This document shows, one piece after another, positions 3,223 to 34,410 of a DNA stretch of 64,000 nucleotides. Each line of letters starts with the position of its first letter. Position 1 is the stretch's first letter. The notes under the pieces were generated by a model. The model saw only the letters and a list, made by a program, of their open reading frames with translations, ran no database searches and had not been told where the DNA came from. Source of the DNA: an uncultured Acidobacteriota bacterium (GTDB lineage Bacteria > Acidobacteriota > Thermoanaerobaculia > UBA5066 > Gp7-AA6); the NCBI GenBank assembly GCA_963733955.1, contig CAVTEW010000003.1:1308322-1372321 (forward strand), given 5' to 3'. Made by a program: the position numbers and the translations under genes.

Positions 3223-5700
3223 TTACGCCCGTGGCGCCGGAGTGGAACGACCCCTCGGGGCCGGCGCGACCTCCCGTGCCGGCGCCGCCGGAGGCGCGGG
3301 CATCGGCTCGGGGGCCGGCTTTTCGGCGGACACCGGGGGCAGGAGCGCGATCTCGAGCACCTCTTCGACCGTGTCGACGTAGCGGAACGTCATCTCGTGG
3401 ACCAGACGCGTCGAGATCTGCGTGATGTCCCGCCGATTGAGCCTGGGCAGCACCACCATCTTGATCTTGGCCTGGCGGGCCGCGAGCACTTTCTCCTTGA
3501 CGCCGCCGATGGGCAGCACTTCGCCGCGCAGCGTGATCTCGCCGGTCATCGCGACGTCGCGGCGGACCGGGCGCTGCGTGAAGGAAGAGATCATCGCCGC
3601 GGCCATGGTGATGCCGGCGGACGGCCCATCCTTGGGGATCGATCCCTCCGGAACGTGCACGTGCACGTCCCGCGTCTCGAAAAAGTCGTCGGCGATTCCC
3701 AGGTCGCGGGCATGGGCGCGGGCGTACGACATGGCCGCCTGCGCCGACTCCTTCATGACGTCCCCGAGCTGGCCGGTCAGGCGCAGGCTTCCCTTGCCGC
3801 GGACGGCCAGGGACTCGACGAACAGGAGATCTCCTCCGGTGGACGTCCAGGCCAGCCCCGTGGCGACGCCGACCTGGTCCTTCTTGAGGAGCTCGTCGGC
3901 GAAATGCTTGACCGGGCCGAGCATCTTCTCGACCGACGCGGAGGTGATCCGGTACCGGCGCGTCTTGCCCTTGGCCACGGACACGGCGACCTTGCGGCAG
4001 ATCGAGCCGATCTCCCGCTCCAGATTTCGCAGCCCGGCCTCGCGGGTGTAGGCCTCGATGACCTTGGCGAGCCCGCCCTCGGTGAATTCGAGGTTCGCCT
4101 CGGAGACCCCGTTCTCCTCCATCTGCTTGGGGATCAAGTGGCGGCGGGCGATCGCCTTCTTCTCCTCCAGCGTGTAGCCGGAGAGGCGGATGACCTCCAT
4201 CCGGTCGAGGAACGCGGGCTGGATCGGATCGAGAATGTTCGCTGTGGCGATGAACAGGACCCTGGAGAGATCGTAAGGGACTCCCAGGTAGTGGTCGCGG
4301 AACGAGAAGTTCTGCTCGGGGTCGAGCACCTCCAGGAGGGCCGAGCTCGGATCACCCCGGTAGTCCGCTCCGATCTTGTCGATCTCGTCGAGCATGAAGA
4401 CGGGGTTGGAGGTTCCAGCCTGGTGAATCCCCTGGACGATGCGGCCGGGCATGGCTCCGACGTAGGTGCGGCGGTGGCCCCGGATCTCCGCCTCGTCCCG
4501 CACGCCGCCCAGCGACAGGCGGACGAACTTGCGATCGAGGGCGCGGGCGATCGACCGTCCGAGCGAGGTCTTCCCGACTCCGGGCGGGCCCACGAAACAG
4601 AGGATCGGCCCCTTGAGGGTCTTCTTCAGCGCGTGCACGGCGAGAAACTCGAGGATCCGTTCCTTGACCTTTTCGATGTCGTAATGGTCCTCGTCGAGGA
4701 TCTGGCGCGAACGCTCGATGTCCTCGGCGTCGGAAGAGACCACGCCCCAGGGAAGCCCGGTCATCCAGTCGAGGTAGGTCCGGATGATGGCCGTCTCCGC
4801 CGAATCGGGGTGGCTGCGCTCCAGGCGCTTGATCTGCTTCTCGATCTCCAGCGCGGCCTCCGCGGTGATCTTCTTCTCCGTCACCAGCTCCTTGTAGTGG
4901 GAGAGCTCCTCGCTGATCTCTTCCCCTTCTCCGAGCTCCTGCTGGATGGCCCGCAGCTGCTGGCGCAGGTAGTACTCGCGCTGCGAGCGGTCCATCTCGC
5001 CGCGGGCCTGGGTGGAGATCTCCTGCTGCATGGTCAGGACGGTGATCTCCTTGGCCAGGCTGTCGTTGACCGCCCTCAAACGGTCGATCGGATCGACCGA
5101 TTCCAGGATCTTCTGGGCCTCTTCGAGCTTGAGGTCGAGGTTGGAGGCCGCCAGGTCGGCCAGGCGCGCCGGATCGTCCAGGTTGGCGGCGATGACCATG
5201 ACCTCGGGCGAGATGTTCTTGCCGAGCGAGACGGACTTCTCCAGGTTCTGCTTGACGCTGCGCACCAGGGCTTCCTGCTCGGGAGGGAGCTCCTTGGGGC
5301 TGTCGCGCTCCTCCAGCCGGGTGATCTTGGCCTTGAGGTAGGGCTCTTCGGCCAGGAAGGAGTCGACCCGCGCGCGGGTGAGACCCTGGACGAGAAGCCG
5401 GATGCGGCCGTCCGGGAGCTTGAGCATCCGCATGATGGCCACCACCGTGCCGACCGAGTACAGGTCCGCGGGGCGCGGCGTTTCGTTGGAGGCGTCCTTC
5501 TGCGCGACGAGCATGATGATGCGCTGCTCGGCGAGCGCGGCGTCGACGGCCTGGATCGACTTCTCCCGGGAGACCGAGAGCGGCAGGATGATGAAGGGGA
5601 ACACGACCACGTCCTTGAGCGGAAGGACGGGGAGGATGTCGGGGATCGGGAGCTCCTGGTCCCGCTCGGCGACGACCTCTTTCTCTTCTACTTCGGCCAT
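3223..5700 (-). CDS. lon: ATP-dependent Lon protease with a ~40-aa Pro/Ala-rich C-terminal tail
   Basis: Full-length Lon: N-terminal LON domain, Walker A GPPGVGKTS, and a C-terminal proteolytic domain containing PKDGPSAG. Confidence 0.95.
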   Translation of the reverse strand: MAEVEEKEVVAERDQELPIPDILPVLPLKDVVVFPFIILPLSVSREKSIQAVDAALAEQRIIMLVAQKDASNETPRPADLYSVGTVVAIMRMLKLPDGRIRLLVQGLTRARVDSFLAEEPYLKAKITRLEERDSPKELPPEQEALVRSVKQNLEKSVSLGKNISPEVMVIAANLDDPARLADLAASNLDLKLEEAQKILESVDPIDRLRAVNDSLAKEITVLTMQQEISTQARGEMDRSQREYYLRQQLRAIQQELGEGEEISEELSHYKELVTEKKITAEAALEIEKQIKRLERSHPDSAETAIIRTYLDWMTGLPWGVVSSDAEDIERSRQILDEDHYDIEKVKERILEFLAVHALKKTLKGPILCFVGPPGVGKTSLGRSIARALDRKFVRLSLGGVRDEAEIRGHRRTYVGAMPGRIVQGIHQAGTSNPVFMLDEIDKIGADYRGDPSSALLEVLDPEQNFSFRDHYLGVPYDLSRVLFIATANILDPIQPAFLDRMEVIRLSGYTLEEKKAIARRHLIPKQMEENGVSEANLEFTEGGLAKVIEAYTREAGLRNLEREIGSICRKVAVSVAKGKTRRYRITSASVEKMLGPVKHFADELLKKDQVGVATGLAWTSTGGDLLFVESLAVRGKGSLRLTGQLGDVMKESAQAAMSYARAHARDLGIADDFFETRDVHVHVPEGSIPKDGPSAGITMAAAMISSFTQRPVRRDVAMTGEITLRGEVLPIGGVKEKVLAARQAKIKMVVLPRLNRRDITQISTRLVHEMTFRYVDTVEEVLEIALLPPVSAEKPAPEPMPAPPAAPAREVAPAPRGRSTPAPRA

Positions 5701-25625: not shown

Positions 25626-25807
25626 ACTCTCCCTCGGGCGGCAACCGGTCCCCGACGTGTCTGTCGGAATGCACCGCTCCAAAGTTGAAGTGGCTCGCCG
25701 GAGGCGAAATCCACACAAACTTTTTTTGCGAAAGTGAAATAGTTGAGCTCCGCAGGCGTCATTTGGGCGCAAGGCGCCGGTTCGGTTAGAATGCCGAAAA
25801 CCCAATC

Positions 25808-26308
25808 ATGTCGACGGAGTTCCCCCAGACCGCCCGGCAAGTCGTCGAGTCGGTCCTGTTGGATCCTCAGGAACGCAAGAAACTCGTCGGTTTCGCCGGA
25901 GCGCGCTACGGAATCCGGGAAGAGGACGCTGAGGATCTGCTTCAGGAAACCGCCCTGGAGCTCCTGCGGCAGCGGCACTCCGTGAGGAGCCCCCAGGCCT
26001 ACCTGTTCACCGTTTTCAAGAACCGCTGCGTGCGGTTCTTCCGGACCCGCAAGCGGCAGGCCGCCGTCGAGCTCGACGAGCAGATGCCTGACCCGACGTC
26101 GGTCGCGGCGGGGGAGAAGCGGGAACGTCATCTGGCCGTCCGCCAGGCGCTGTGCCGAATCTCGTCCGCTTGCCGAAAGCTCCTGGCGTCCTTCTACGTC
26201 GAAGGCAAGAGTCTCAAAGAAACGTCGGCGGAGAGCACGTATGCTTTCAGCGGGATGGGCAATACGATCAATCGTTGCCTGGAGAGACTTCGCGCATGCA
26301 TGGAATGA
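25808..26308 (+). CDS. ECF sigma-70 family factor
   Basis: Region 2 EDAEDLLQETALEL and region 4 LKETSAESTYAFSGMGNTINRCLERLR. Confidence 0.8.
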   Translation: MSTEFPQTARQVVESVLLDPQERKKLVGFAGARYGIREEDAEDLLQETALELLRQRHSVRSPQAYLFTVFKNRCVRFFRTRKRQAAVELDEQMPDPTSVAAGEKRERHLAVRQALCRISSACRKLLASFYVEGKSLKETSAESTYAFSGMGNTINRCLERLRACME

Positions 26309-27693
26309 CGCAGCACCTCGACGACTTCACCCTGCTGCGTTACGTCGCGGGTGACCTGGACGCGTCGGAACGAACTGCGGCGTCCGAACACCTCGATGCC
26401 TGCGCCCCCTGCAAGGCAACCCACCGCGAGATCGAAGAATTGGACGAGGAGCTGAAGGCGATCGCGCAGGATCCGTCCACGCGGCTGGACTTCGAGGTCG
26501 AGGAGCTGCCGGAGGAGGATCCGTTCCTAAGGCGGCCACGACGGGAGTCTCGCATGCGCCGCCCCAATCGGGACACGCCGATGGCGAGCGCCCTCGAAGC
26601 CTCCGAGGAAGGGGGAGTGCTCTCCGGAACTGTTCTGTCCGCGATCAAGGGCTGTCCTGAAGATCTGCAATCTCTTGTCGATCGCCTGGATCTTACGGAC
26701 TTGTCTTATCGCTTCGCGCTTCTCTACGGCCTTCAGGAGGCGGGGAAGCGGATCTCGGAAGCCCCTTACCGGATTCTGCGATCAGCCGAGTCCTTGTTGG
26801 AGAAGCTCCGTCGAGACGGTCCGAGTGCCGACCGGATCGTCCCGGAGGAGCTCCTGAACGGTCAGATCCATCAGCTTGCCGGTAGTGCATGCCTCTGGAC
26901 GGGGGAATACGACAAAGCGGGTACTCACCTGCATTTGGCGTACGAGTACCTCGGTACGACGAGCGACGACACTTCGCTCGCAGTCGTCGAGCTGTTCGAG
27001 GCTCAGCGTCGATCGTTCTTGGGACGTGGGAACGAAGGACTGGCCCTCGCGCGCCGCTCGTTCTCGACCTTCGAGTTGTTCGAAATGAGGGACTACATGG
27101 CTCGCGCCCGGGTCGTCATCGGGCTTGCGCTCTTCGATCTCGGCAAGTACCAGGAAGCAGTGGAGTCCTATCGTCTGGCGATTCCAACCTTCGAGTCCGA
27201 AGGCCTTTGGGCGAACTATGTCGGGGCCGTCAACAGCGTCGCCACGGCCTTGGAGCGCCAGGGAAATCTCGACGGCGCACGCCGAGAGTTCGCGCGCGCC
27301 CTGAAGCGAGTCTCCCGTGAACGGGACCGCGCCTTCGTCGCCGCTATCCGAAAGGGGCTGGCCGAAGTTCTCTTCTCCGCGAAACGGTATCGCGAGGCGG
27401 CGATCGCATCCTCCCAAGCCGGTCGCCTCTATGGCGAAACGAAACAACTTTACTTTCGGTTGTGGGCCCTGCTCTTCGAGATCGAGAGTTGGGCCCGGGC
27501 CGGTGAGGCCGACCGCGCCTGTCACCGCCTCGACCTGTTCCGATCGGAGGTTGCCCGTCTCGGAGCGCTGGATGGATCGATCTGCCGAAACATCGAGTCG
27601 GCTCTCAAGGGTGAGCGTCAGGACTTTGCCGCGATCGCGCTCTTGAGGACAGAGGCCTCGGAGACCCTCAAGGAGCGTTTGCTCGGCGCTTAG
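26296..27693 (+). CDS. anti-sigma factor: zf-HC2 N-terminus with a cytoplasmic TPR-like C-terminal domain
   Basis: LLRYVAGDLDASERTAASEHLDACAPCKA. Overlaps the sigma stop by 13 nt. ORF 26152.. over-extended. Confidence 0.7.
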   Translation: MHGMTQHLDDFTLLRYVAGDLDASERTAASEHLDACAPCKATHREIEELDEELKAIAQDPSTRLDFEVEELPEEDPFLRRPRRESRMRRPNRDTPMASALEASEEGGVLSGTVLSAIKGCPEDLQSLVDRLDLTDLSYRFALLYGLQEAGKRISEAPYRILRSAESLLEKLRRDGPSADRIVPEELLNGQIHQLAGSACLWTGEYDKAGTHLHLAYEYLGTTSDDTSLAVVELFEAQRRSFLGRGNEGLALARRSFSTFELFEMRDYMARARVVIGLALFDLGKYQEAVESYRLAIPTFESEGLWANYVGAVNSVATALERQGNLDGARREFARALKRVSRERDRAFVAAIRKGLAEVLFSAKRYREAAIASSQAGRLYGETKQLYFRLWALLFEIESWARAGEADRACHRLDLFRSEVARLGALDGSICRNIESALKGERQDFAAIALLRTEASETLKERLLGA

Positions 27694-28066
27694 CCTCCGA
27701 TACCAAGACCCCCCCGAAAAAATCTGTCAAAAAGCGCCCCTTCCTAGGCACGTACTAGGTCGGAAGGCGGCCATGGAGCGCTCCACTCCGCTTCCAGATT
27801 CCCCGCCCAGCGCGGGAACCAAGGAGGTTGTGTGTGAACGCCGAAAATACGCCTGTTCCGGCCTGAATCTCTGGCCCCCGTCGGTCCGGCTCGCGCGGGC
27901 CGGGCCGGCGGCCTTCGTTAGGTCAGCTCAACCCCGTGTCCGGTTGGCGATCGGCTAATAATCGACCGCGTGACTGGAGGGCGACGCAGCAGGCGACGTG
28001 GGTCGGCTTCTCGACGATCGTCATCGCAGGATGACGTTGGAACCGGTCCAGGGAAGTCCCTCAGAC

Positions 28067-28377
28067 GATCCACGGAAGCCTTCTATCGCGAGTATTTTCT
28101 GCCGCTCGTCCGCCGGGCGACCTGGCGGCACGGACTGTCCTCCGACGACGCCCGGGATATCGTGCAGGACGCCTTCCTGATCGCGCTCGAGAAAATGGAT
28201 TTCGCCAGAAGCCTGGAAGCCTGGATCCTCTAGAGGGGCGCGGCCGGCCATCGAGGAAGAGAAAATGATCCCCGAAGGCATCGCGGCTTACGGCCTTCTC
28301 GGCGAATCCGTCCGCCGCCGTCAGATCAACCGCCAGGCCCTGCGCGATCTTCACGGCTACTTCCGCCACGATCGCTG
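28067..28377 (+). pseudogene. decayed remnant of a sigma-region-2-only / TPR-partner cassette: a region-2 fragment, then a 38-aa C-terminal partner fragment
   Basis: FYREYFLPLVRRATWRHGLSSDDARDIVQDAFLIALEK (28067-28233) resembles the 30974 gene product. MIPEGIAAYGLLGESVRRRQINRQALRDLHGYF (28264-28377) matches the C-terminus of the 31353 protein (KMVPEGMAALALLRQSLRNHRINREALRNLHGYF). Confidence 0.55.
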
Positions 28378-28494
28378 ACCACTGCGGGCTTCAAATCCGC
28401 CGCCCGTCCTCGGGACCTGGGAACCCTCTCACGGAGCACGGCTTACTCCTCGCGACACTAAGTTAGGTAGAGGATTGCTCTGAGAGGAGGGACC

Positions 28495-29670
28495 ATGCGG
28501 AGTCGGACCGCGGTCGCGGCATCGATCGTCGGCATTTTTCTCAGTCTTCCAGCAGTCGGTCGGCAGGCTCTTGCGAGTGCGGATGCGGGCGGCCAGAGCC
28601 CAGCGGCCGGCCTCCACCGATCGGCGACGAAGCCAGAGAACGTCGCGGCGAGCAATACCTGGTTCTACACGATCCGCGACGAGAACAACCGGCCGGCGAT
28701 CGAGTATCACCTCGGCCAGGCCGGCAACGTCATCACCGATCGCATTTACGCCTACCTCGGCAACACATTGGTAGCCACCTACGAGGCGAGCGGCAATTCG
28801 CCCGGGTGGGTTTACTACGGCACCGATCACCTGGGCTCCGTGCGGACCGTGATGTCCGGTACGACCTGCACGCAGCAGTTCCAGCCTTTCGGCGAACCGG
28901 CCGGGCAGAGCTGCTCAACTGGCAGCCCGGTCAAGTTTGCCGGCATGGAACGAGACTCGACCTCTGGCAACGACTACGACCATGCGAGGTTCCACGGGGG
29001 GGGGAGCACGCTGGGACGGTTCCTCGGTCCTGACAAGCTCCAGGGTCATCCTGCCGATCCGCAGTCCTGGAACCGTTACGCATACGCCCGGAACAGCCCG
29101 GTCACTCTCATCGATCGCAATGGCATGGAGTTCGGCTCGCCGGGTGGAGGTGCCGAGCTGCACACGGCTGTCCTAAACTTTGAGGCGACCTACCATCACA
29201 GCGAGCCGGCGATGGCTGAGCTCGGCCAGTCGGTCGCCCTGCAAGAGACCCTTGGTCCCGTGGGAACGGCGGCTGTGCTCATCTCTGGCGCCGGCCCTGC
29301 GGTCAGACTCATCTCAGAGATCTCGAGCATTCGGCCTCCCACTGCTCCGCGCGAGGCCGATTCGAACACGCTAGGGCCCGGCCCGTACTCGGGCAGATCG
29401 ATTCCGGCTCGTGGAGAGCAACGCAATTTCACCGTAGCAGAGCGATCTCAAATTAACGAGGCAGGTTCAGAAACCGGCTGTCATACCTGCGGTACAAAGG
29501 TTCCAGGAACAAAGAGCGGAAATTTCGTTCCCGACCATCAGCCTCCGAACGCGCTCAACGAGCCGGGCGAGCCGCAACGTCTGTATCCGCAATGCATAGA
29601 CTGCAGCCGGCAGCAGGGCCTTCAAATCATCCGCACATTGAAGGACGTCCTGGGACCGCCCGTGAAATGA
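28495..29670 (+). CDS. small secreted RHS-repeat-associated-core toxin: signal peptide, RHS core, then an HNH/EndoVII-like nuclease-type C-terminal tip (putative)
   Basis: Signal peptide MRSRTAVAASIVGIFLSLPAVG. The core (WFYTIRDENNRPAIEYH...YYGTDHLGSVR...FAGMERDSTSGNDYDHARFHGGGSTLGRF) is near-identical to the core of the giant rhs. C-terminal CHTCG...DHQPP...CIDC motif. Confidence 0.8.
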   Translation: MRSRTAVAASIVGIFLSLPAVGRQALASADAGGQSPAAGLHRSATKPENVAASNTWFYTIRDENNRPAIEYHLGQAGNVITDRIYAYLGNTLVATYEASGNSPGWVYYGTDHLGSVRTVMSGTTCTQQFQPFGEPAGQSCSTGSPVKFAGMERDSTSGNDYDHARFHGGGSTLGRFLGPDKLQGHPADPQSWNRYAYARNSPVTLIDRNGMEFGSPGGGAELHTAVLNFEATYHHSEPAMAELGQSVALQETLGPVGTAAVLISGAGPAVRLISEISSIRPPTAPREADSNTLGPGPYSGRSIPARGEQRNFTVAERSQINEAGSETGCHTCGTKVPGTKSGNFVPDHQPPNALNEPGEPQRLYPQCIDCSRQQGLQIIRTLKDVLGPPVK

Positions 29671-29677
29671 TCTGGCC

Positions 29678-30325
29678 GTGAGCTCCGAAGAGGTCGTGGT
29701 TCTGGCGGAAGGTCTCCGGGCCCGCACCGTTGGTCTTCGCCGAGCGGGTCGTCCCGAGGTGGCTGTCGCCGTTGACGACGCCGCGCTAATGCCTGAAGCG
29801 GAGCGGTTTCTCGGCTTCGTGTCGAGATACATCCTGAGGGCGAAAGTCACGATTAGAGACGGCGAGACGCTGGCGTACGGCTACTGGTTGACGAAGTTCG
29901 TCGCGGTTAACGCCGGAAACTTGGACGTATGGGAGTACGCTAGCTCGGGTACTCACTTCTCTCCGGGCGCCACTCTTACGCTGACGTACTGGCGCGAGCA
30001 ACACGCCATTTGCGAGAAAGCCGGGACCGAGTTCAGGCCGCCCCGTCCGGATGAGCTCGCGGCCGTATCCCCAGCAGTTCTCGAGGGCGCGTCCGTTCAG
30101 GGCGTCAGATACCCGAGCCCCGCACCGATGTCAGGGTGGTGGATTACCGCCGACGACTACACCGGCGACATCAAGATGCTGGGGACGGAACATCTCTATC
30201 ACCTGACGGACCTGCGCCCGGATCTGGCACGGTACCTGGCGCTGCCGCAGGGCTTCAGGTTCGATCTTGCCAACTACGAAGACGTGTGGTTCGATCGAGC
30301 GGTGGCCGACCAATCTGCGATCTGA
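29678..30325 (+). CDS. putative cognate immunity protein of the orphan toxin
   Basis: Starts 8 nt after the toxin stop. No recognisable enzyme motif. Assignment by position only. Confidence 0.45.
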   Translation: MSSEEVVVLAEGLRARTVGLRRAGRPEVAVAVDDAALMPEAERFLGFVSRYILRAKVTIRDGETLAYGYWLTKFVAVNAGNLDVWEYASSGTHFSPGATLTLTYWREQHAICEKAGTEFRPPRPDELAAVSPAVLEGASVQGVRYPSPAPMSGWWITADDYTGDIKMLGTEHLYHLTDLRPDLARYLALPQGFRFDLANYEDVWFDRAVADQSAI

Positions 30326-30361
30326 CCGCCCGCCCCGAAATCTAGCGACGCTAGAGCAACC

Positions 30362-30895
30362 GTGAGCCATATCGGCCTTTTGGCATGGGTCGAAGAACAT
30401 CTGAAGCCTTTCGGCTCGGAACGGCAGCCCCGATCAAGACGGACTCCCAATACCCGTTGCTACCCGGTCGTTTCCCACCTTGTTGACTGCACTTTGGAGG
30501 TCGGGTACTCTCCTCGCGCTGCAAGGGCAAGGATTCTAGATTTGGCGCAGCGCCGCGCGGAGGTTGACTCCGTCTTCCGCCACTCGCTCGGAGCGATCCA
30601 CTTCGCGCTGGTGGACCTTTACCTGCTGAGCGAAGCAGGGGCTGCGGAAGTCGCCGGGAATCTCTACGTCTGGTTTGAACGATTCGCCGAACGCGGGAGC
30701 AGGAGGGAGATGCCCGTTTCGACGCTTCGTTTCCCGTTGCTGCTCGCCGCGTGTCAGGCCGGCGTCGCGGCGAAGCAGCGCGAGCTTCGCGGAGGGTCCT
30801 GCGTGGAAGCGGGATTGCGGGAGACACTCGCTCGAGCGCCGGAGGACGTGGCGCGGGAATTAGCGTTGAAGCTACCGCTTGGCAATGACATGTAA
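30362..30895 (+). CDS. hypothetical protein (possible second immunity or cassette accessory protein)
   Basis: ORF only. Lower local GC. No motif recognised. Confidence 0.35.
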   Translation: MSHIGLLAWVEEHLKPFGSERQPRSRRTPNTRCYPVVSHLVDCTLEVGYSPRAARARILDLAQRRAEVDSVFRHSLGAIHFALVDLYLLSEAGAAEVAGNLYVWFERFAERGSRREMPVSTLRFPLLLAACQAGVAAKQRELRGGSCVEAGLRETLARAPEDVARELALKLPLGNDM

Positions 30896-30973
30896 GCTAC
30901 TGCACCCAAATCACTTCGCACTCGCGACATATAGCTGTTAGGAAGGTGCTTTGAACGACGGCATCGCATTCGC

Positions 30974-31336
30974 TTGAGCGGATGGAAGGGGCGATTCTCG
31001 CCCTCGCGCCGGGTGGCTTCACGCCGGGTTGTCAGCCCCGAGAAGCTCGAGGAATTCCATCTCAAGTTCTTTCTGCCCCTCGTGCGGCGAGCGATACGGC
31101 GGCATGGACTTTCGAACGAGGATGCCCGTGACGTTGTTCAAGAAGCTTTTGTCGTCGCGCTCGCCAAGCTCGGCTCAACCAGCTATGCCCTGGCTTGGTT
31201 GAAGCAGGTCGTGGACTTTCAGTCGATCAATCTGAAGCGGACGTCCGCGCGCCGAGCACGGCTCCTTGCGCAGTGGGCTGGAACGAGTCTTCCCGAAGGT
31301 TCCACTCTGCTCGAAGTCCCGGCGGACGAAATCTGA
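30974..31336 (+). CDS. sigma-70 region-2-only protein (no region 4)
   Basis: FFLPLVRRAIRRHGLSNEDARDVVQEAFVVALAKL...AWLKQVVDFQSINLKR matches sigma70_r2. The protein ends ~40 aa later with no region 4 helix-turn-helix. Confidence 0.6.
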   Translation: MSGWKGRFSPSRRVASRRVVSPEKLEEFHLKFFLPLVRRAIRRHGLSNEDARDVVQEAFVVALAKLGSTSYALAWLKQVVDFQSINLKRTSARRARLLAQWAGTSLPEGSTLLEVPADEI

Positions 31337-31352
31337 CGTGCGGAGTAATCAA

Positions 31353-32957
31353 ATGGCCACCCAGATGATGAGAGATCAGATCGCTGCGTGGCTCGAAGCC
31401 ACTCGAGGCATTGAGCTCGTGGTGGGGCTCGACGCGAAAGAGGCGGAACGGCGGGCGCTCGCGCTACTCGCGGCGATCCTGGAAAATCGGATCTCGCCCG
31501 ATTCTATGGTCCTCGACGAGGAAGCCAAGCAGGTCCTCTCAATTCTCGTCAGGCAGCTCGCCGAGTTGAACGCGGATAAAGGCGATCGTCTCCGCCAAGC
31601 GGCTGCCGTTGCGAGATTTATCGGTCGCCTTCGATGGTCCGATGACAACTTCGGCGAGAAGGAGGATCTTCTTCTCGAATGCGAGCAGGTTGGCCTCGGT
31701 GAGGACGGGATAACTCTTGGAGGAACCCCACCGAACACTCCGGAGTTCGAAGTCCACGCCGGCAAAGTGGATCCGATCAAAAGCGAGTCTCTGCAGCTCC
31801 AGATCGGCCTGGCCCCCACATTCCCGGTCATCGGTGGAGGGGAGAATACCAATTCGTCAAGGTCTGGTCGGCCGCGCCGGCGGCTGCTCTCCGAGAATCA
31901 GGCGAGCGAGGCGGCCGAGCGAACTTTGGCAATTCCAATTTCGGAGCGCGCGGGCAAGGAGATCGAGCTCCGGCTCGAAGCGCCGGAGACACTGTTGGCC
32001 ATGAGCGGCCTCCTGCGTGCGCGCCTGGATGTATCGCCGGCGACGGCCCGCGAGGAGGCGGATTACCTCTATCGGTTCCTGGACAAGCCGAAGCGGGAAA
32101 TCGGGCTCTTCGACGAGAGAGATTATTTCCTTGGCGAGATGGCGTTGATCGCGGCGACGGCGTGCAGACACCTCTCACTTCGTGAAGATTCCAAGCGCTG
32201 GCTCGATCGATCCGAGGCCGGGTTCCGCAAAACGATCAACGGGGCCGCGGAATGGGCGCGGGTCTCGTATCAGCGGCTGGCCTTGAGAATGGAGGAGCGG
32301 GAGTTCGAAGAGGTCTTGAGTCTGGCTCCATCTCTCTTCGATGATCTGGTCAACCGAGGCATGGGGGAGCACGCAATCAAGTGCCGATTCTTGGAGGGTG
32401 GAGCGCTGATCGAGATGGGCCGACTGGCGGAGGCGGTGAAAATCTTCGAGAGCCTCTGCGAGCATTGCGCACTTTTGAAGAACGAGAACCTTCTTGCAGG
32501 CGCTTACACGAACCTGACCCATTGCCATGCTCTACTCGGTGAATCGAAGGAAGCGCTCTCGGCCTCAAAGGAGGCTTCTCGGCTCTTACGGCGGGCCGGT
32601 GACCGGATCGGCTTGGCAAAGCTTCAGTGGTTCCTCGGAAATCTTCTTCGCGAACAGCATCAACTCACCGCAGCAATAGAGATTTATCGCTCGGCGCAGA
32701 GTGAATTCAGCGAGCTCTCCATGCAGGCCGACGTCGCGGCGATTCACCTGATCGTGGCGGATCTCATGCTGGAGCTCGGCCAGGACGCCCAGGCCCGCTG
32801 GGAGATCCAGGCGGCGCTTCCGGTGATCGACGAGAAGAAGATGGTGCCGGAAGGCATGGCGGCCCTTGCCCTCCTTCGCCAGTCCCTACGAAATCACCGC
32901 ATCAACCGCGAGGCGCTGCGAAACCTGCACGGATACTTCGAGGATCTGGGCTCTTAA
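31353..32957 (+). CDS. TPR-like partner protein (similar to the C-terminal domain of the 26296 anti-sigma; lacks zf-HC2 and TM)
   Basis: ATG 31353 (MATQMMRDQIAAWL). Alpha-helical TPR-like C-terminal half. Its C-terminal tail is repeated in the 28264 remnant. Confidence 0.6.
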   Translation: MATQMMRDQIAAWLEATRGIELVVGLDAKEAERRALALLAAILENRISPDSMVLDEEAKQVLSILVRQLAELNADKGDRLRQAAAVARFIGRLRWSDDNFGEKEDLLLECEQVGLGEDGITLGGTPPNTPEFEVHAGKVDPIKSESLQLQIGLAPTFPVIGGGENTNSSRSGRPRRRLLSENQASEAAERTLAIPISERAGKEIELRLEAPETLLAMSGLLRARLDVSPATAREEADYLYRFLDKPKREIGLFDERDYFLGEMALIAATACRHLSLREDSKRWLDRSEAGFRKTINGAAEWARVSYQRLALRMEEREFEEVLSLAPSLFDDLVNRGMGEHAIKCRFLEGGALIEMGRLAEAVKIFESLCEHCALLKNENLLAGAYTNLTHCHALLGESKEALSASKEASRLLRRAGDRIGLAKLQWFLGNLLREQHQLTAAIEIYRSAQSEFSELSMQADVAAIHLIVADLMLELGQDAQARWEIQAALPVIDEKKMVPEGMAALALLRQSLRNHRINREALRNLHGYFEDLGS

Positions 32958-33044
32958 CCGACGCTGCCAGGCGCCGAGCCTGAAGGAACTTCCGCCGGCC
33001 GTCCCTACGGAGAATCTGCAGATTCGATCCTGGGCAATTAGGGC

Positions 33045-33809
33045 TTACCGCGATCGTCGAACCCTTGGCGTATCCTCTTTGAGAACGAGGCGCAGGAGCC
33101 TTTCCAGCCGGGCGTCGGCCGAGAGGTCCGGGGCGGCTTCGGTTGCCAGCTGCCGGTGCTGGCGCGCGAACTGAATCGCCGCGGAAACCACGAGCGCCTT
33201 GGGATTTCTGGGGGGCATGGCGCTGCGCTTCCAGAACCTAGAGAACCACGCCTCCAGCTCTCGTTCCAGCAGGCGGATTTCCGGATCGGTGAACCGCCAG
33301 ACTTCAGCGAGCAGAACCCGGACGAGGGGGAGCGCACGATCCAGAGTGAGCAGGAGCTCAGTCTCCAACGTGCTACGTCCTGCGCCTGCGGGAGGCTCCT
33401 CGGGTCCGAAGGCCGTTTCGTGCGATTCGGCGATCGGCTCTGACACCGTACGCAGGTGCGCCGTTGCGCAAGCTCGCAGCAGAGACTCCTTTCCGTTGAA
33501 CTCGCCTTCCCACGAGAGTCCCTGGATGAACCCCTGGACCGATTTCGCGCGTCGCTCGATCTCGCCGGGAAGTCGGCCTGGGCCTGGGAGAACGCGGTAG
33601 GCGAGCGCGTAGAGGATGTTCTTCAAGTCATCGTCGAGATTTATCGTTTCGGGGTTCGCGGTGCCGTCGTGGATCGACCGCTCCAGCAATTCGGCGCGGA
33701 GAATCGTTTCGTCTTCGTCAATGCGAGAGTGTGTTGCCTCCTGGATGAGCGTGGCCATCCGGTCGACCCAGTTCTCCAGTTCGCGGTCGTACGGGCGGTG
33801 GCTGCGCAT
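33045..33809 (-). CDS. partner protein of the minus-strand sigma-region-2-only gene (anti-sigma-like, alpha-helical)
   Basis: ATG (MRSHRPYDRELENW) overlaps the upstream stop as ATGA. ORF 33045..34676 over-extended. Confidence 0.5.
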   Translation of the reverse strand: MRSHRPYDRELENWVDRMATLIQEATHSRIDEDETILRAELLERSIHDGTANPETINLDDDLKNILYALAYRVLPGPGRLPGEIERRAKSVQGFIQGLSWEGEFNGKESLLRACATAHLRTVSEPIAESHETAFGPEEPPAGAGRSTLETELLLTLDRALPLVRVLLAEVWRFTDPEIRLLERELEAWFSRFWKRSAMPPRNPKALVVSAAIQFARQHRQLATEAAPDLSADARLERLLRLVLKEDTPRVRRSR

Positions 33810-34378
33810 CAATCCTCCTCTTTCCCAGGACGCGCCCGAGCGGCGTCCGGACCCCAGTAGGCGAGAAGCGTGGCACGGCGGCCGCGCTTTCGGTTGAAGT
33901 TGAGGACGAGCCGTTCGACAACGCCCTCGAGCCATGCTCGCGTGTCTTTCAGAGGCCCCGTCCTTTCGAGGAGAACCACGAACGCCTCCTGAACGACATC
34001 CTCCGCGTCTTCGGGCGGGAGGCGGTGCTTCCAGCGCACTTCGATCGCGAGTTCCTTGAAGAGAATTGCGTATGAGCCATTGAGCTCCTTGAATCTCAGC
34101 TCGTCCGAAGCTCGAAAGGCGCTGCGCCAGCGCAGAGGGCTCCGCCTCGCCCTGGCTCGGGCCGCCGCGCCCGCTCCTCGCCCTTCGGTCGCGCGCATGC
34201 TTTCGTGGGTGCTCTTCGACATAGTAGTGTCGCGAGCCCCAAATCCTTTTTCCTGAGAACGTTCCAGAGCATACAACGAACGGCGGTCTCGGCAAGCCGC
34301 GCTTGGTCGGTGGCCAGAAGCCTGTCCGAGCACTCTCGCGCAACTTGCTGCGTGCCTGTCGGTTCTCGTTCGCGACAC
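33809..34378 (-). CDS. sigma-70 region-2-only protein (second paralog; true start may be an internal Met near 34225)
   Basis: PPEDAEDVVQEAFVVLLERTGPLKDTRAWLEGVVERLVLNFNRKR region 2, no region 4. Confidence 0.55.
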   Translation of the reverse strand: MSRTRTDRHAASCARVLGQASGHRPSAACRDRRSLYALERSQEKGFGARDTTMSKSTHESMRATEGRGAGAAARARARRSPLRWRSAFRASDELRFKELNGSYAILFKELAIEVRWKHRLPPEDAEDVVQEAFVVLLERTGPLKDTRAWLEGVVERLVLNFNRKRGRRATLLAYWGPDAARARPGKEED

Positions 34379-34410
34379 TAAGAAGGTAGAGAAACCAGTT
34401 ACGAGGGTCG

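Follow-up and report, generated by a model that had tools for sequence, protein, structure and literature searches.

A conserved box before rhs toxin and sigma-2-only genes of Acidobacteriota, a candidate −35-independent promoter

The box and the genes that it precedes

A 64,000-nucleotide (nt) stretch of DNA from an uncultured Acidobacteriota bacterium (contig CAVTEW010000003.1, positions 1,308,322 to 1,372,321; hereafter the window) carries a gene for a giant Rhs protein, an orphan rhs C-terminal toxin gene and, between them, two genes for small proteins that contain region 2 of a sigma factor and no region 4 (sigma-2-only or region-2-only genes). All four are preceded by copies of one short element, (C)TCGCGACAY-TA...TAGRG, termed here the box. 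The T of its TCG (T0, position 0) lies at 28450, 30922, 34370 and, on the reverse strand, 34235. The same box precedes the homologous sigma-2-only genes of related loci, and we argue below that it may well be a −35-independent promoter. The four sites, the genes behind them and the neighboring genes of the same family of cassettes are as follows.

Site A, 28443..28472, + strand: before the orphan rhs C-terminal (rhs-CT) toxin gene; weight-matrix score 20.0 bits.
Site B, 30915..30944, + strand: before sigma-2-only gene B; 12.2 bits, the most deviant of the four copies.
Site C, 34212..34242, − strand: before sigma-2-only gene C; 14.7 bits.
Site D, 34363..34392, + strand: before the giant rhs gene; 26.7 bits.
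Orphan rhs C-terminal toxin gene, 28495..29670, + strand: with its own box, Shine-Dalgarno sequence and ATG; a signal peptide is apparent by eye (MRSRTAVAASIVGIFLSLPAVGRQALA).
134-family gene, 30542..30895, + strand: 117 amino acids.
Sigma-2-only gene B, 30974..31336, + strand: Sigma70_r2 only, no region 4.
TPR partner of B, 31353..32957, + strand: 534 amino acids; start no more than about 20 nt from the stop of gene B.
Partner of C, 33045..33809, − strand: about 254 amino acids; a partner-type N-terminal domain fused to a C-terminal 134-family domain.
Sigma-2-only gene C, 33809..34222, − strand: 137 amino acids from ATG 34222 or 129 from ATG 34198.
Giant rhs gene, 34411..43248, + strand: 2945 amino acids; RHS_repeat (1e-25) and, at the C terminus, CDI_toxin_EC869_like (2e-8).

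An earlier note on this DNA had placed such a box before both rhs toxin genes and one region-2-only gene. The three sequences that it quoted are all present, at positions 1–2 nt away from those it gave: CTCGCGACACTAAGTTAGGTAGAG at 28449-28472 (site A), CTCGCGACATATAGCTGTTAGGAAGG at 30921-30946 (site B) and CGCGACACTAAGAAGGTAGAG at 34371-34391 (site D). Site C (GCTCGCGACACTACTATGTCGAAGAG), which is divergent from site D and 135 nt from it, is absent from that note. The core is cTCGCGACACTA at sites A (28449-28460) and C (34236-34225), cTCGCGACATATA at site B (30921-30933) and tTCGCGACACTA at site D (34369-34380); at site A it is preceded by TT at 28443-44. The second half of the box, given in the note as GGTAGAG, is real but looser than that, reading TAGRG with its T and A at +17 and +18. 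It is strongest at the rhs copies (TAGAG at 28468-28472 and 34387-34391), reads TAGGA at site B (30939-30943) and is weak at site C (cGAAGAG, 34218-34212).

The predicted transcription starts (+1) fall near A28469, A30940 and A34388 at sites A, B and D, respectively. The ATG of the orphan toxin gene (28495) is 45 nt past T0, and the giant rhs gene starts at ATG 34411. For gene B, a start at TTG 30974 would fit the motif-to-start distance of the family; one gene caller chose GTG 31013. If transcription of gene C starts near 34216, only its ATG at 34198 would be usable. An identical copy of site B is present in the locus of a sister metagenome-assembled genome (MAG; L122, where L numbers are locus labels).

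The exact 11-mer TCGCGACACTA occurs three times in the window against 0.05 expected, a count that none of 100 dinucleotide shuffles reaches, and outside the box the flanks of the four copies do not resemble one another. The octamer TCGCGACA by itself is not enriched in the window (6 found, 4.4 expected); its two remaining occurrences, at 659 and 50198, lie inside open reading frames (ORFs) with high G+C at third codon positions and have neither the TA nor the second half-box. Allowing one mismatch in a 10-mer is too loose, with 48 matches in the window against 78 expected. A weight matrix spanning −8 to +23 and built from 50 homologous sites outside the window finds, at 8 bits or more, only sites A–D in the 64 kb. 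Between 28000 and 35000, a canonical sigma-70 promoter scan gave no match at any of the four sites.

The box in related loci

We studied 58 related loci, 441 kb in total, from Acidobacteriota/Thermoanaerobaculia MAGs and soil metagenomes: 3 came from exact-protein look-ups, 13 are genome contigs and 42 are metagenome contigs. The sequence TCGYGACAATAT-N5-TAGRG precedes 54 of the 54 intact region-2-only homologues that have upstream DNA on their contig, three of the boxes being single-base core variants (TTGCGACAATA, TCACGACAATA and TCATGACAATA). The four loci outside this set comprise three cut by contig ends and L080, which has a deletion of the box and the first codons.

The L080 deletion (around 1730-1760, compared with 4125-4290 of L067) takes the box and about the first 30 codons of the sigma-2-only gene. 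Its junction joins upstream sequence ending in cccatga to tactttctgc within the gene, and the result is either a promoter-less pseudogene or an assembly artefact.

The matrix gives six extra matches in the 441 kb, in four loci (two are the same sequence), each no more than about 2 kb from a region-2-only operon. In L001, cTCGCGACAATACGTTAGGTAGAG, whose second half-box is the same as at sites A and D, precedes an rhs gene that points away from the sigma-2-only gene. In L005, two boxes (8806 and 12146, + strand; TCATGACAGTA and TCGTGACAGTA, 27 and 35 bits) precede the gene for a small secreted cysteine-rich protein (MRSKVLVGCLTVFVLLG...CSQCKKACYDEY...) and its truncated copy, and the extra matches in L072 and L073 are a duplicated promoter. 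The control, 461 kb of loci around ordinary extracytoplasmic function (ECF) sigma genes, holds a single match at 12 bits or more. The box stands before the sigma-like gene's own operon and a few nearby genes, a placement of the autoregulatory type. The note's suggestion that a shared promoter or operator co-regulates the toxins and the region-2-only genes gains strong support from the presence of the box at every intact homologue and at the L001 rhs gene and its near absence from the control.

Anatomy of the box

The anatomy was derived from 50 non-redundant aligned sites. Positions 0–7 served to find the sites, whereas −1, 8–11 and 17–21 are unbiased, and these positions are strongly conserved too. 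The conserved span runs from −7 to +22 and reads TT-N5-C-TCGYGA-CAATAT-N5-T-A-G-R-G (in the window, TCGCGA-CACTA), with TT at −7/−6, C at −1, TCGYGACAATAT at 0 to +11 and TAGRG at +17 to +21. Information content is high at −1 to +11 and at +17 to +21 and drops to nearly zero upstream of −8. Box and downstream gene invariably point in the same direction, and a median of 47 nt separates T0 from the first in-frame start codon. A+T reaches 76% at +7 to +18, compared with 40% in the flanks. Taken as a hexamer, CAATAT (+6 to +11) keeps an A at position 2 and a T at position 6, and T17-A18 follows 7 nt downstream. Just before this hexamer, 26 sites have TGA and 24 have CGA. The same A and T are kept in the other −10 register, GACAAT, which is always preceded by CG.

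There is no conserved −35, as nothing is conserved upstream of −8 among the aligned sites. Strong terminator hairpins end at −18 to −22 in L017, L064, L069 and L071, and their T-tails extend to about −10. A space filled by a terminator has no room for a sequence-specific −35, and transcription would have to restart at the box. The bipartite arrangement of ECF promoters (a −35 such as GGAAC and a −10 such as CGTC or GTT, separated by 16–18 nt) was not found.

Where a −35 is present in these genomes, it is easy to see. The 134-aa gene that accompanies the sigma-2-only gene (see below) has, some 30 nt ahead of its start, the canonical promoter TTGnnT-N17-TAnnCT, which in the window reads TTGACT-N17-TACTCT (30483-30511, + strand). 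It is also present, with a looser TTGnnT, in L001, L002, L005, L010, L012, L056, L057, L062, L078, L082 and L073. The element gives a picture, drawn from sequence, of what housekeeping promoters look like in these uncultured Acidobacteriota, and such ordinary promoters are unlike the box. The fixed orientation, the roughly 47 nt to the start codon, the −10-like geometry and the lack of a −35 favor a promoter over a symmetric operator. Judged by the alignment, the anatomy of the box is that of a promoter with all of its information at and just upstream of the −10.

The sigma-2-only family and its cassette

A search with protein B returned 87 clusters, all of 82–135 amino acids and all with PF04542 (Sigma70_r2) as the only Pfam domain. 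Residues of the region 2.2/2.4 type are near-invariant (EDARDVVQEAF and AWL..VVD.L..N..RK..RR). The NCBIfam ECF models align to these proteins through their N-terminal (sigma-2) half only, and the family profile matches the sigma-2 domains of SigR (1h3l), SigJ (5xe7) and sigma-E (2mao) in the PDB. An AlphaFold2 (AF2) model (predicted local distance difference test score, 84) consists of a three-helix sigma-2-like domain and a disordered tail, and its top Foldseek matches, with weak E-values, are SigL (6dv9_F, probability 0.99), sigma-E and AlgU. Measured against ECF sigmas, the proteins thus have the sigma-2 domain with its region 2.2/2.4 features but not the two-domain architecture. All confident genomic matches are MAGs of Acidobacteriota/Thermoanaerobaculia. 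Most members have a conserved W after the sigma-2 domain, followed by a variable and strongly acidic tail of 20–35 residues (for example, ..SEAGSVCDTSDSNGGDY) that is disordered in the AF2 model.

Almost every locus with enough DNA contains a four-gene cassette in the order 134-aa gene, ~373-aa TPR gene, box, sigma-2-only gene and ~480-aa TPR partner gene. In every locus the sigma-2-only gene is tightly trailed, and often overlapped, by a gene for a TPR protein of about 470–530 amino acids. The C-terminal ~330 residues of this partner are homologous to the 373-aa TPR protein of the cassette, and its N-terminal helical domain has the conserved pattern I..WL..T.G...GL...EA..RA. The fusion seen in the partner of C recurs in proteins of about 250–270 amino acids in a 1.84-billion representative set. 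The 134-family protein of the window is deviant (37–40% identity) and is paired with a deviant box (C at +8).

Searches for a region 4 hidden in the N terminus of the TPR partner or in the 134-aa protein were negative: Pfam gave none, and PDB profiles returned designed helical repeats or nothing. The searches likewise revealed no helix-turn-helix in the cassette proteins and no DNA-binding domain of another known type. The 134-aa protein may have another sigma-2-type fold rather than a sigma-4 one; its hhalign probability against the region-2-only family is 0.3% with a 6-sequence alignment and 6.8% (P = 0.005) with 30 sequences.

The rhs toxins

The giant Rhs contains many Ig-like/He_PIG repeats, and the island has the RHS/YD repeats, C-terminal toxin and downstream immunity gene that define Rhs polymorphic toxins. 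Residues ~55–210 of the orphan toxin are homologous to the tip of the giant Rhs (the pre-toxin Rhs core segment), and its toxin domain has no Pfam match. With its own box, Shine-Dalgarno sequence, start codon and apparent signal peptide, the orphan looks independently expressed and not like a silent recombination reservoir.

An rhs gene with a box lies next to a cassette in the window (two rhs genes), in a near-identical sister MAG (L122/L130) and, independently, in L001. We rejected the box as a general rhs feature. Homologues of the rhs N terminus away from a cassette have the ordinary promoters TTGACT-N18-TAGCGT (L123), TTGACG-N18-TAGCGT (L124) and TTGACC-N17-ATAGAT (L127), and in L126 the box is degenerate. 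The box is thus a feature of the cassette, acquired by rhs genes adjoining one, and the rhs toxins and the cassette are probably switched on together.

In L123 (around 3830-3880) and L124 (around 610-665), the promoter extends to TTGACn-N18-TAGCGT-N5-TAGAG. GTAGAG is thereby kept at the expected start, right after the −10, which supports GGTAGAG as the start region of rhs transcripts. The sequence TCGATAGCGT in these two loci has A and T at offsets +5 and +9, as in TCGYGACAAT. This hints that the box evolved from, or has its register in common with, an ordinary rhs promoter.

Neighboring genes

The region from 26 to 34.4 kb has a G+C content of about 62%, lower than its flanks. Besides the genes listed above, it contains or adjoins the following.

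Complete ECF sigma gene, 25808-26308, + strand: full-length, 2 kb from the box region.
Anti-sigma gene, 26302-27693: cytoplasmic zf-HC2 plus TPR.
Relic of a third sigma-2-only and TPR partner module, 27970..28378, + strand: ends 72 nt before site A.
Imm33-like gene, 29678-30325: right after the orphan toxin gene.

A 143-aa ORF after the giant rhs gene has no Pfam match. The relic consists of the N-terminal two thirds of a sigma-2-only ORF (..EAFYREYFLPLVRRATWRHGLSSDDARDIVQDAFLIALEKMDF..), a stop and the last ~45 codons of a TPR partner, and evidently arose by an internal deletion that joined the two genes; no box was found upstream of it.

GGAAC occurs exactly 25 nt before the TCG at sites A (28420-28424) and C (34265-34261, − strand), with GCAAC at site D (34340-34344). 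Sites A and C also have CTCAnGGA in common right after the GGAAC. We rejected GGAAC as the −35 of the box: its spacing is the same at sites A and C, but the other 50 loci do not conserve it. In this genome, GGAAC-N17-nTT might represent an additional promoter of the ECF type, superimposed on the box and possibly used by the neighboring full-length ECF sigma.

A proposed mechanism

The proposal starts from what the loci have in common: a box that is conserved, specific and fixed in orientation and geometry, no conserved −35, a protein family that lacks region 4, and a syntenic cassette. With a probability of roughly 0.55, we favor the box being a −35-independent promoter read by RNA polymerase with a single-domain sigma encoded in the cassette, to which adjacent rhs genes have been recruited.

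We infer the start site, the identity of the reader and the role of the TPR proteins as follows. TCGYGA would form the duplex part just upstream of the −10. CAATAT would be the −10-like hexamer, in which the usually flipped-out bases correspond to A at +7 and T at +11, and T-A at +17/+18 would be the −1/+1 start dinucleotide, giving leaders of about 25–45 nt. A single-domain sigma from the adjacent cassette would direct RNA polymerase to this element. The most likely reader is the Sigma70_r2-only protein, in front of whose own operon the box always stands, which would result in positive autoregulation as in ECF sigmas. Alternatively, or jointly, the cassette's 134-aa protein, presumed to be expressed constitutively, would read the box, so that the two modules would form a cascade. 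The TPR proteins encoded downstream of each small sigma-like protein would serve as sensing or holding partners. Genes beside the cassette that were given the same box would be co-induced with it, namely the giant rhs and orphan toxin genes here, the rhs gene in L001 and the gene for the cysteine-rich protein in L005.

Several observations weigh against this proposal. The window copies deviate from the consensus, with C for A at +8, and score 12–27 bits compared with a median of about 34. The −10 register is ambiguous, GACAAT at +4 to +9 being another possibility, and the +1 was assigned by geometry alone. Motif positions 3, 8 and 11–13 co-vary with columns of the region-2-only alignment only along the phylogeny, and the motif variants follow both the region-2-only and the 134-aa proteins in the same way. 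Since this covariation tracks clades and singles out no DNA-contact residues, it does not identify the reader. The 134-aa protein is also more conserved (70–77% identity) than the region-2-only protein (~50%), and the box is conserved to a degree like that of the 134-aa protein, which makes the latter an equally logical reader. By analogy with PhyR, the sigma-like proteins could instead act as anti-sigma decoys. Finally, no cellular sigma-2-only protein that acts alone was found in the literature searched.

Alternative readings of the box

The box could be the promoter of an ordinary sigma, either the housekeeping sigma at an extended −10-type site or an ECF sigma encoded elsewhere, with the small proteins acting as regulators, for example as PhyR-like decoys that titrate a TPR anti-sigma. 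The −10-like hexamer does keep the A and T of positions 2 and 6, a T at the Y gives TGA, which is a TGn extended −10, a complete ECF and zf-HC2/TPR anti-sigma pair is encoded 2 kb away, and sigma mimics of the PhyR type are an established principle. However, +3 is C in half of the sites, so that the TG is missing there, and in the other register it is always CG. Bases that do not match the consensus (T0, C1, G2, C6 and A8) are invariant across proteins that are only ~45% identical, unlike in housekeeping promoters, and the housekeeping promoters of the same loci read TTGACT-N17-TAnnCT. The conserved −35 to be expected of a two-domain ECF sigma is missing, and terminators fill the space. The earlier note had suggested one of the neighboring ECF sigmas as a possible reader of the box. 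This finds no support: the full-length ECF gene is not syntenic with the box in L001, L002 and L005, and its own upstream region (25735-25770, + strand) has the different, ECF-like pattern TGAAAT-N16-CGTCA and no box match. We regard a promoter of an ordinary sigma as unlikely.

In another reading, the box would be the operator of a sequence-specific DNA-binding repressor or activator that acts on an otherwise weak promoter. Its 11–12 invariant bases exceed the normal need of a −10 element, and half of the sites contain the palindromic hexamer TCGCGA. Yet the element as a whole is asymmetric and the non-palindromic TCGTGA is as frequent as TCGCGA (26 versus 24), its orientation is strictly tied to the downstream gene, and the cassette proteins offer no known DNA-binding domain. 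In addition, the A+T-rich tract, with a T-A step after it at the canonical spacing, has the look of a melting region. An operator is quite improbable on these grounds.

The box might also be transcribed and act in the mRNA leader, as a processing site or a site for an RNA-binding protein, with the start further upstream. The GGAAC 25 nt before the TCG at sites A and C (GCAAC at D) together with the TT at −7/−6 resembles ECF promoters of the form GGAAC-N17-nTT, which would start at about T0. Against this, the GGAAC is confined to this genome among the loci compared, and terminators lie directly upstream of the box in several loci. Rfam 15 covariance models give no match with E ≤ 1 in 28000-35000 of the window, and the predicted leaders (+18 to +62) fold no more stably than a control region (mean z of −0.38 versus −0.49). 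A leader element is very improbable.

The idea that the similarity is due to chance or is a by-product of local duplication, for which the rhs island with its duplicates (the orphan toxin and the giant Rhs tip; three sigma-2-only modules including the relic) offers some ground, is effectively refuted by the three exact 11-mers, the dissimilar flanks and the recurrence of the box in over 50 independent loci drawn from various MAGs and metagenomes.

Comparison with known systems

Cellular sigmas are generally considered to require two or more domains that read DNA (sigma-2 and sigma-4), the known exceptions being a phage factor, gp55, and one two-subunit sigma. The gp55 protein of phage T4 works via a sigma domain 2 at an 8-bp, −10-type late promoter without an equivalent of sigma-4 (PMC2988020, PMC7892883). 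The preferred reading, a −10-confined promoter with a cassette-encoded single-domain sigma, follows the same logic, as here too all promoter information lies within a −10-type element and the putative factor has no domain 4 (as defined in PMC2988020). In contrast to gp55, the system is chromosomal, in Acidobacteriota, and not that of a phage, and the box is longer and of another sequence (TCGYGACAATAT and TAGRG). There is no detectable sequence relationship either, Pfam returning only PF04542 for the region-2-only proteins. No gene for a gp33-like protein or a sliding clamp was seen among the called genes of L001, L002 and L005; TPR proteins are encoded instead.

A two-subunit sigma of Bacillus subtilis, SigO-RsoA, was reportedly described by MacLellan and co-workers in 2009. 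SigO supplies region 4, and SigO-RsoA promoters have −35 and −10 parts. As in that system, sigma function would be spread over small, separate, co-encoded polypeptides, one of them with region-2-like determinants. Here, however, none of the cassette proteins was found to have a region 4, the box lacks a conserved −35, and the second small protein may be sigma-2-type rather than sigma-4. SigO-RsoA is the sole cellular split sigma mentioned in the ECF reclassification paper (PMC7826278).

The cassette also recalls autoregulated ECF/anti-sigma modules, of group 4 of the sigma-70 family (PMC7826278), in its ECF-like region 2, the box before its own operon, the co-transcribed putative partner and the few adjacent targets. 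It differs from them in that it has no region 4, its promoter is not bipartite and the partner has no recognizable anti-sigma domain. ECF classification requires both domains (PMC7826278), so the region-2-only family falls outside it. In the window, zf-HC2 occurs only in the separate full-length ECF pair (26302-27693) and not in the cassette partner.

Kumar and co-workers are said to have reported in 1993 that sigma-70 needs neither region 4 nor a −35 at extended −10 promoters. The box resembles these in having its information at or just upstream of the −10 and a start about 7 nt past the hexamer, whereas the TG is not conserved (C or T at +3, or CG in the other register). The invariant non-consensus bases point to a dedicated reader rather than to the housekeeping sigma. 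Extended −10 (TGn) promoters need no region 4 or −35, and RNA polymerase can initiate without −35 contact (PMC2988020).

Among Rhs/YD-repeat polymorphic toxin loci, the island is typical in its giant Rhs with an EC869-like nuclease and its orphan C-terminal toxin with an Imm33-like gene, and differs in that the orphan has its own copy of a specific promoter box.

More tentatively, and below even odds, we propose that Acidobacteriota (Thermoanaerobaculia and relatives) possess a cellular family of single-domain sigmas that reads the long −10-only promoter TCGYGACAATAT-N5-TAGRG. Its cassette would be a two-tier one of two (sigma-2-like plus TPR) modules, controlling contact-dependent Rhs toxins and other secreted cargo. 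The family would be a chromosomal counterpart of the T4 gp55 logic outside the current sigma and ECF classes. We found no description of the family, the box or the cassette in the full-text literature, the coverage of which was incomplete, so that earlier work may exist. If true, a cellular sigma-2-only family with an invariant, −35-less promoter would extend the minimal architecture of bacterial transcription initiation and add a class of regulators that current ECF censuses, by their design, exclude. Synthetic biology would gain a compact, orthogonal promoter/factor pair. At the locus itself, joint induction of the cassette, the giant Rhs and the so-called orphan toxin is predicted, which opens polymorphic toxin regulation in uncultured soil Acidobacteriota to direct tests.

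Opposite-strand reading and leaders

Read on the reverse strand, the box could be taken for an ECF41-like TGTCACA −35. We rejected this reading, because such a promoter would transcribe away from the conserved gene and into upstream gene ends or terminators.

In L077, L078, L082, L071, L015, L016 and L070, the predicted leader (+24 to +50) folds into a hairpin in which the Shine-Dalgarno sequence (AAGGAGG or AACCGGAGG) is paired with an anti-Shine-Dalgarno sequence (CCCTCCTT or CCGGTT). Such sequestering hairpins are found in some clades only and suggest translational control there. In a single case, the metagenome contig L075 (1-35, compared with 283-320 of L071) begins at about +20, 2 nt after the predicted start, which may be a coincidence or may mark a transcript-derived contig.

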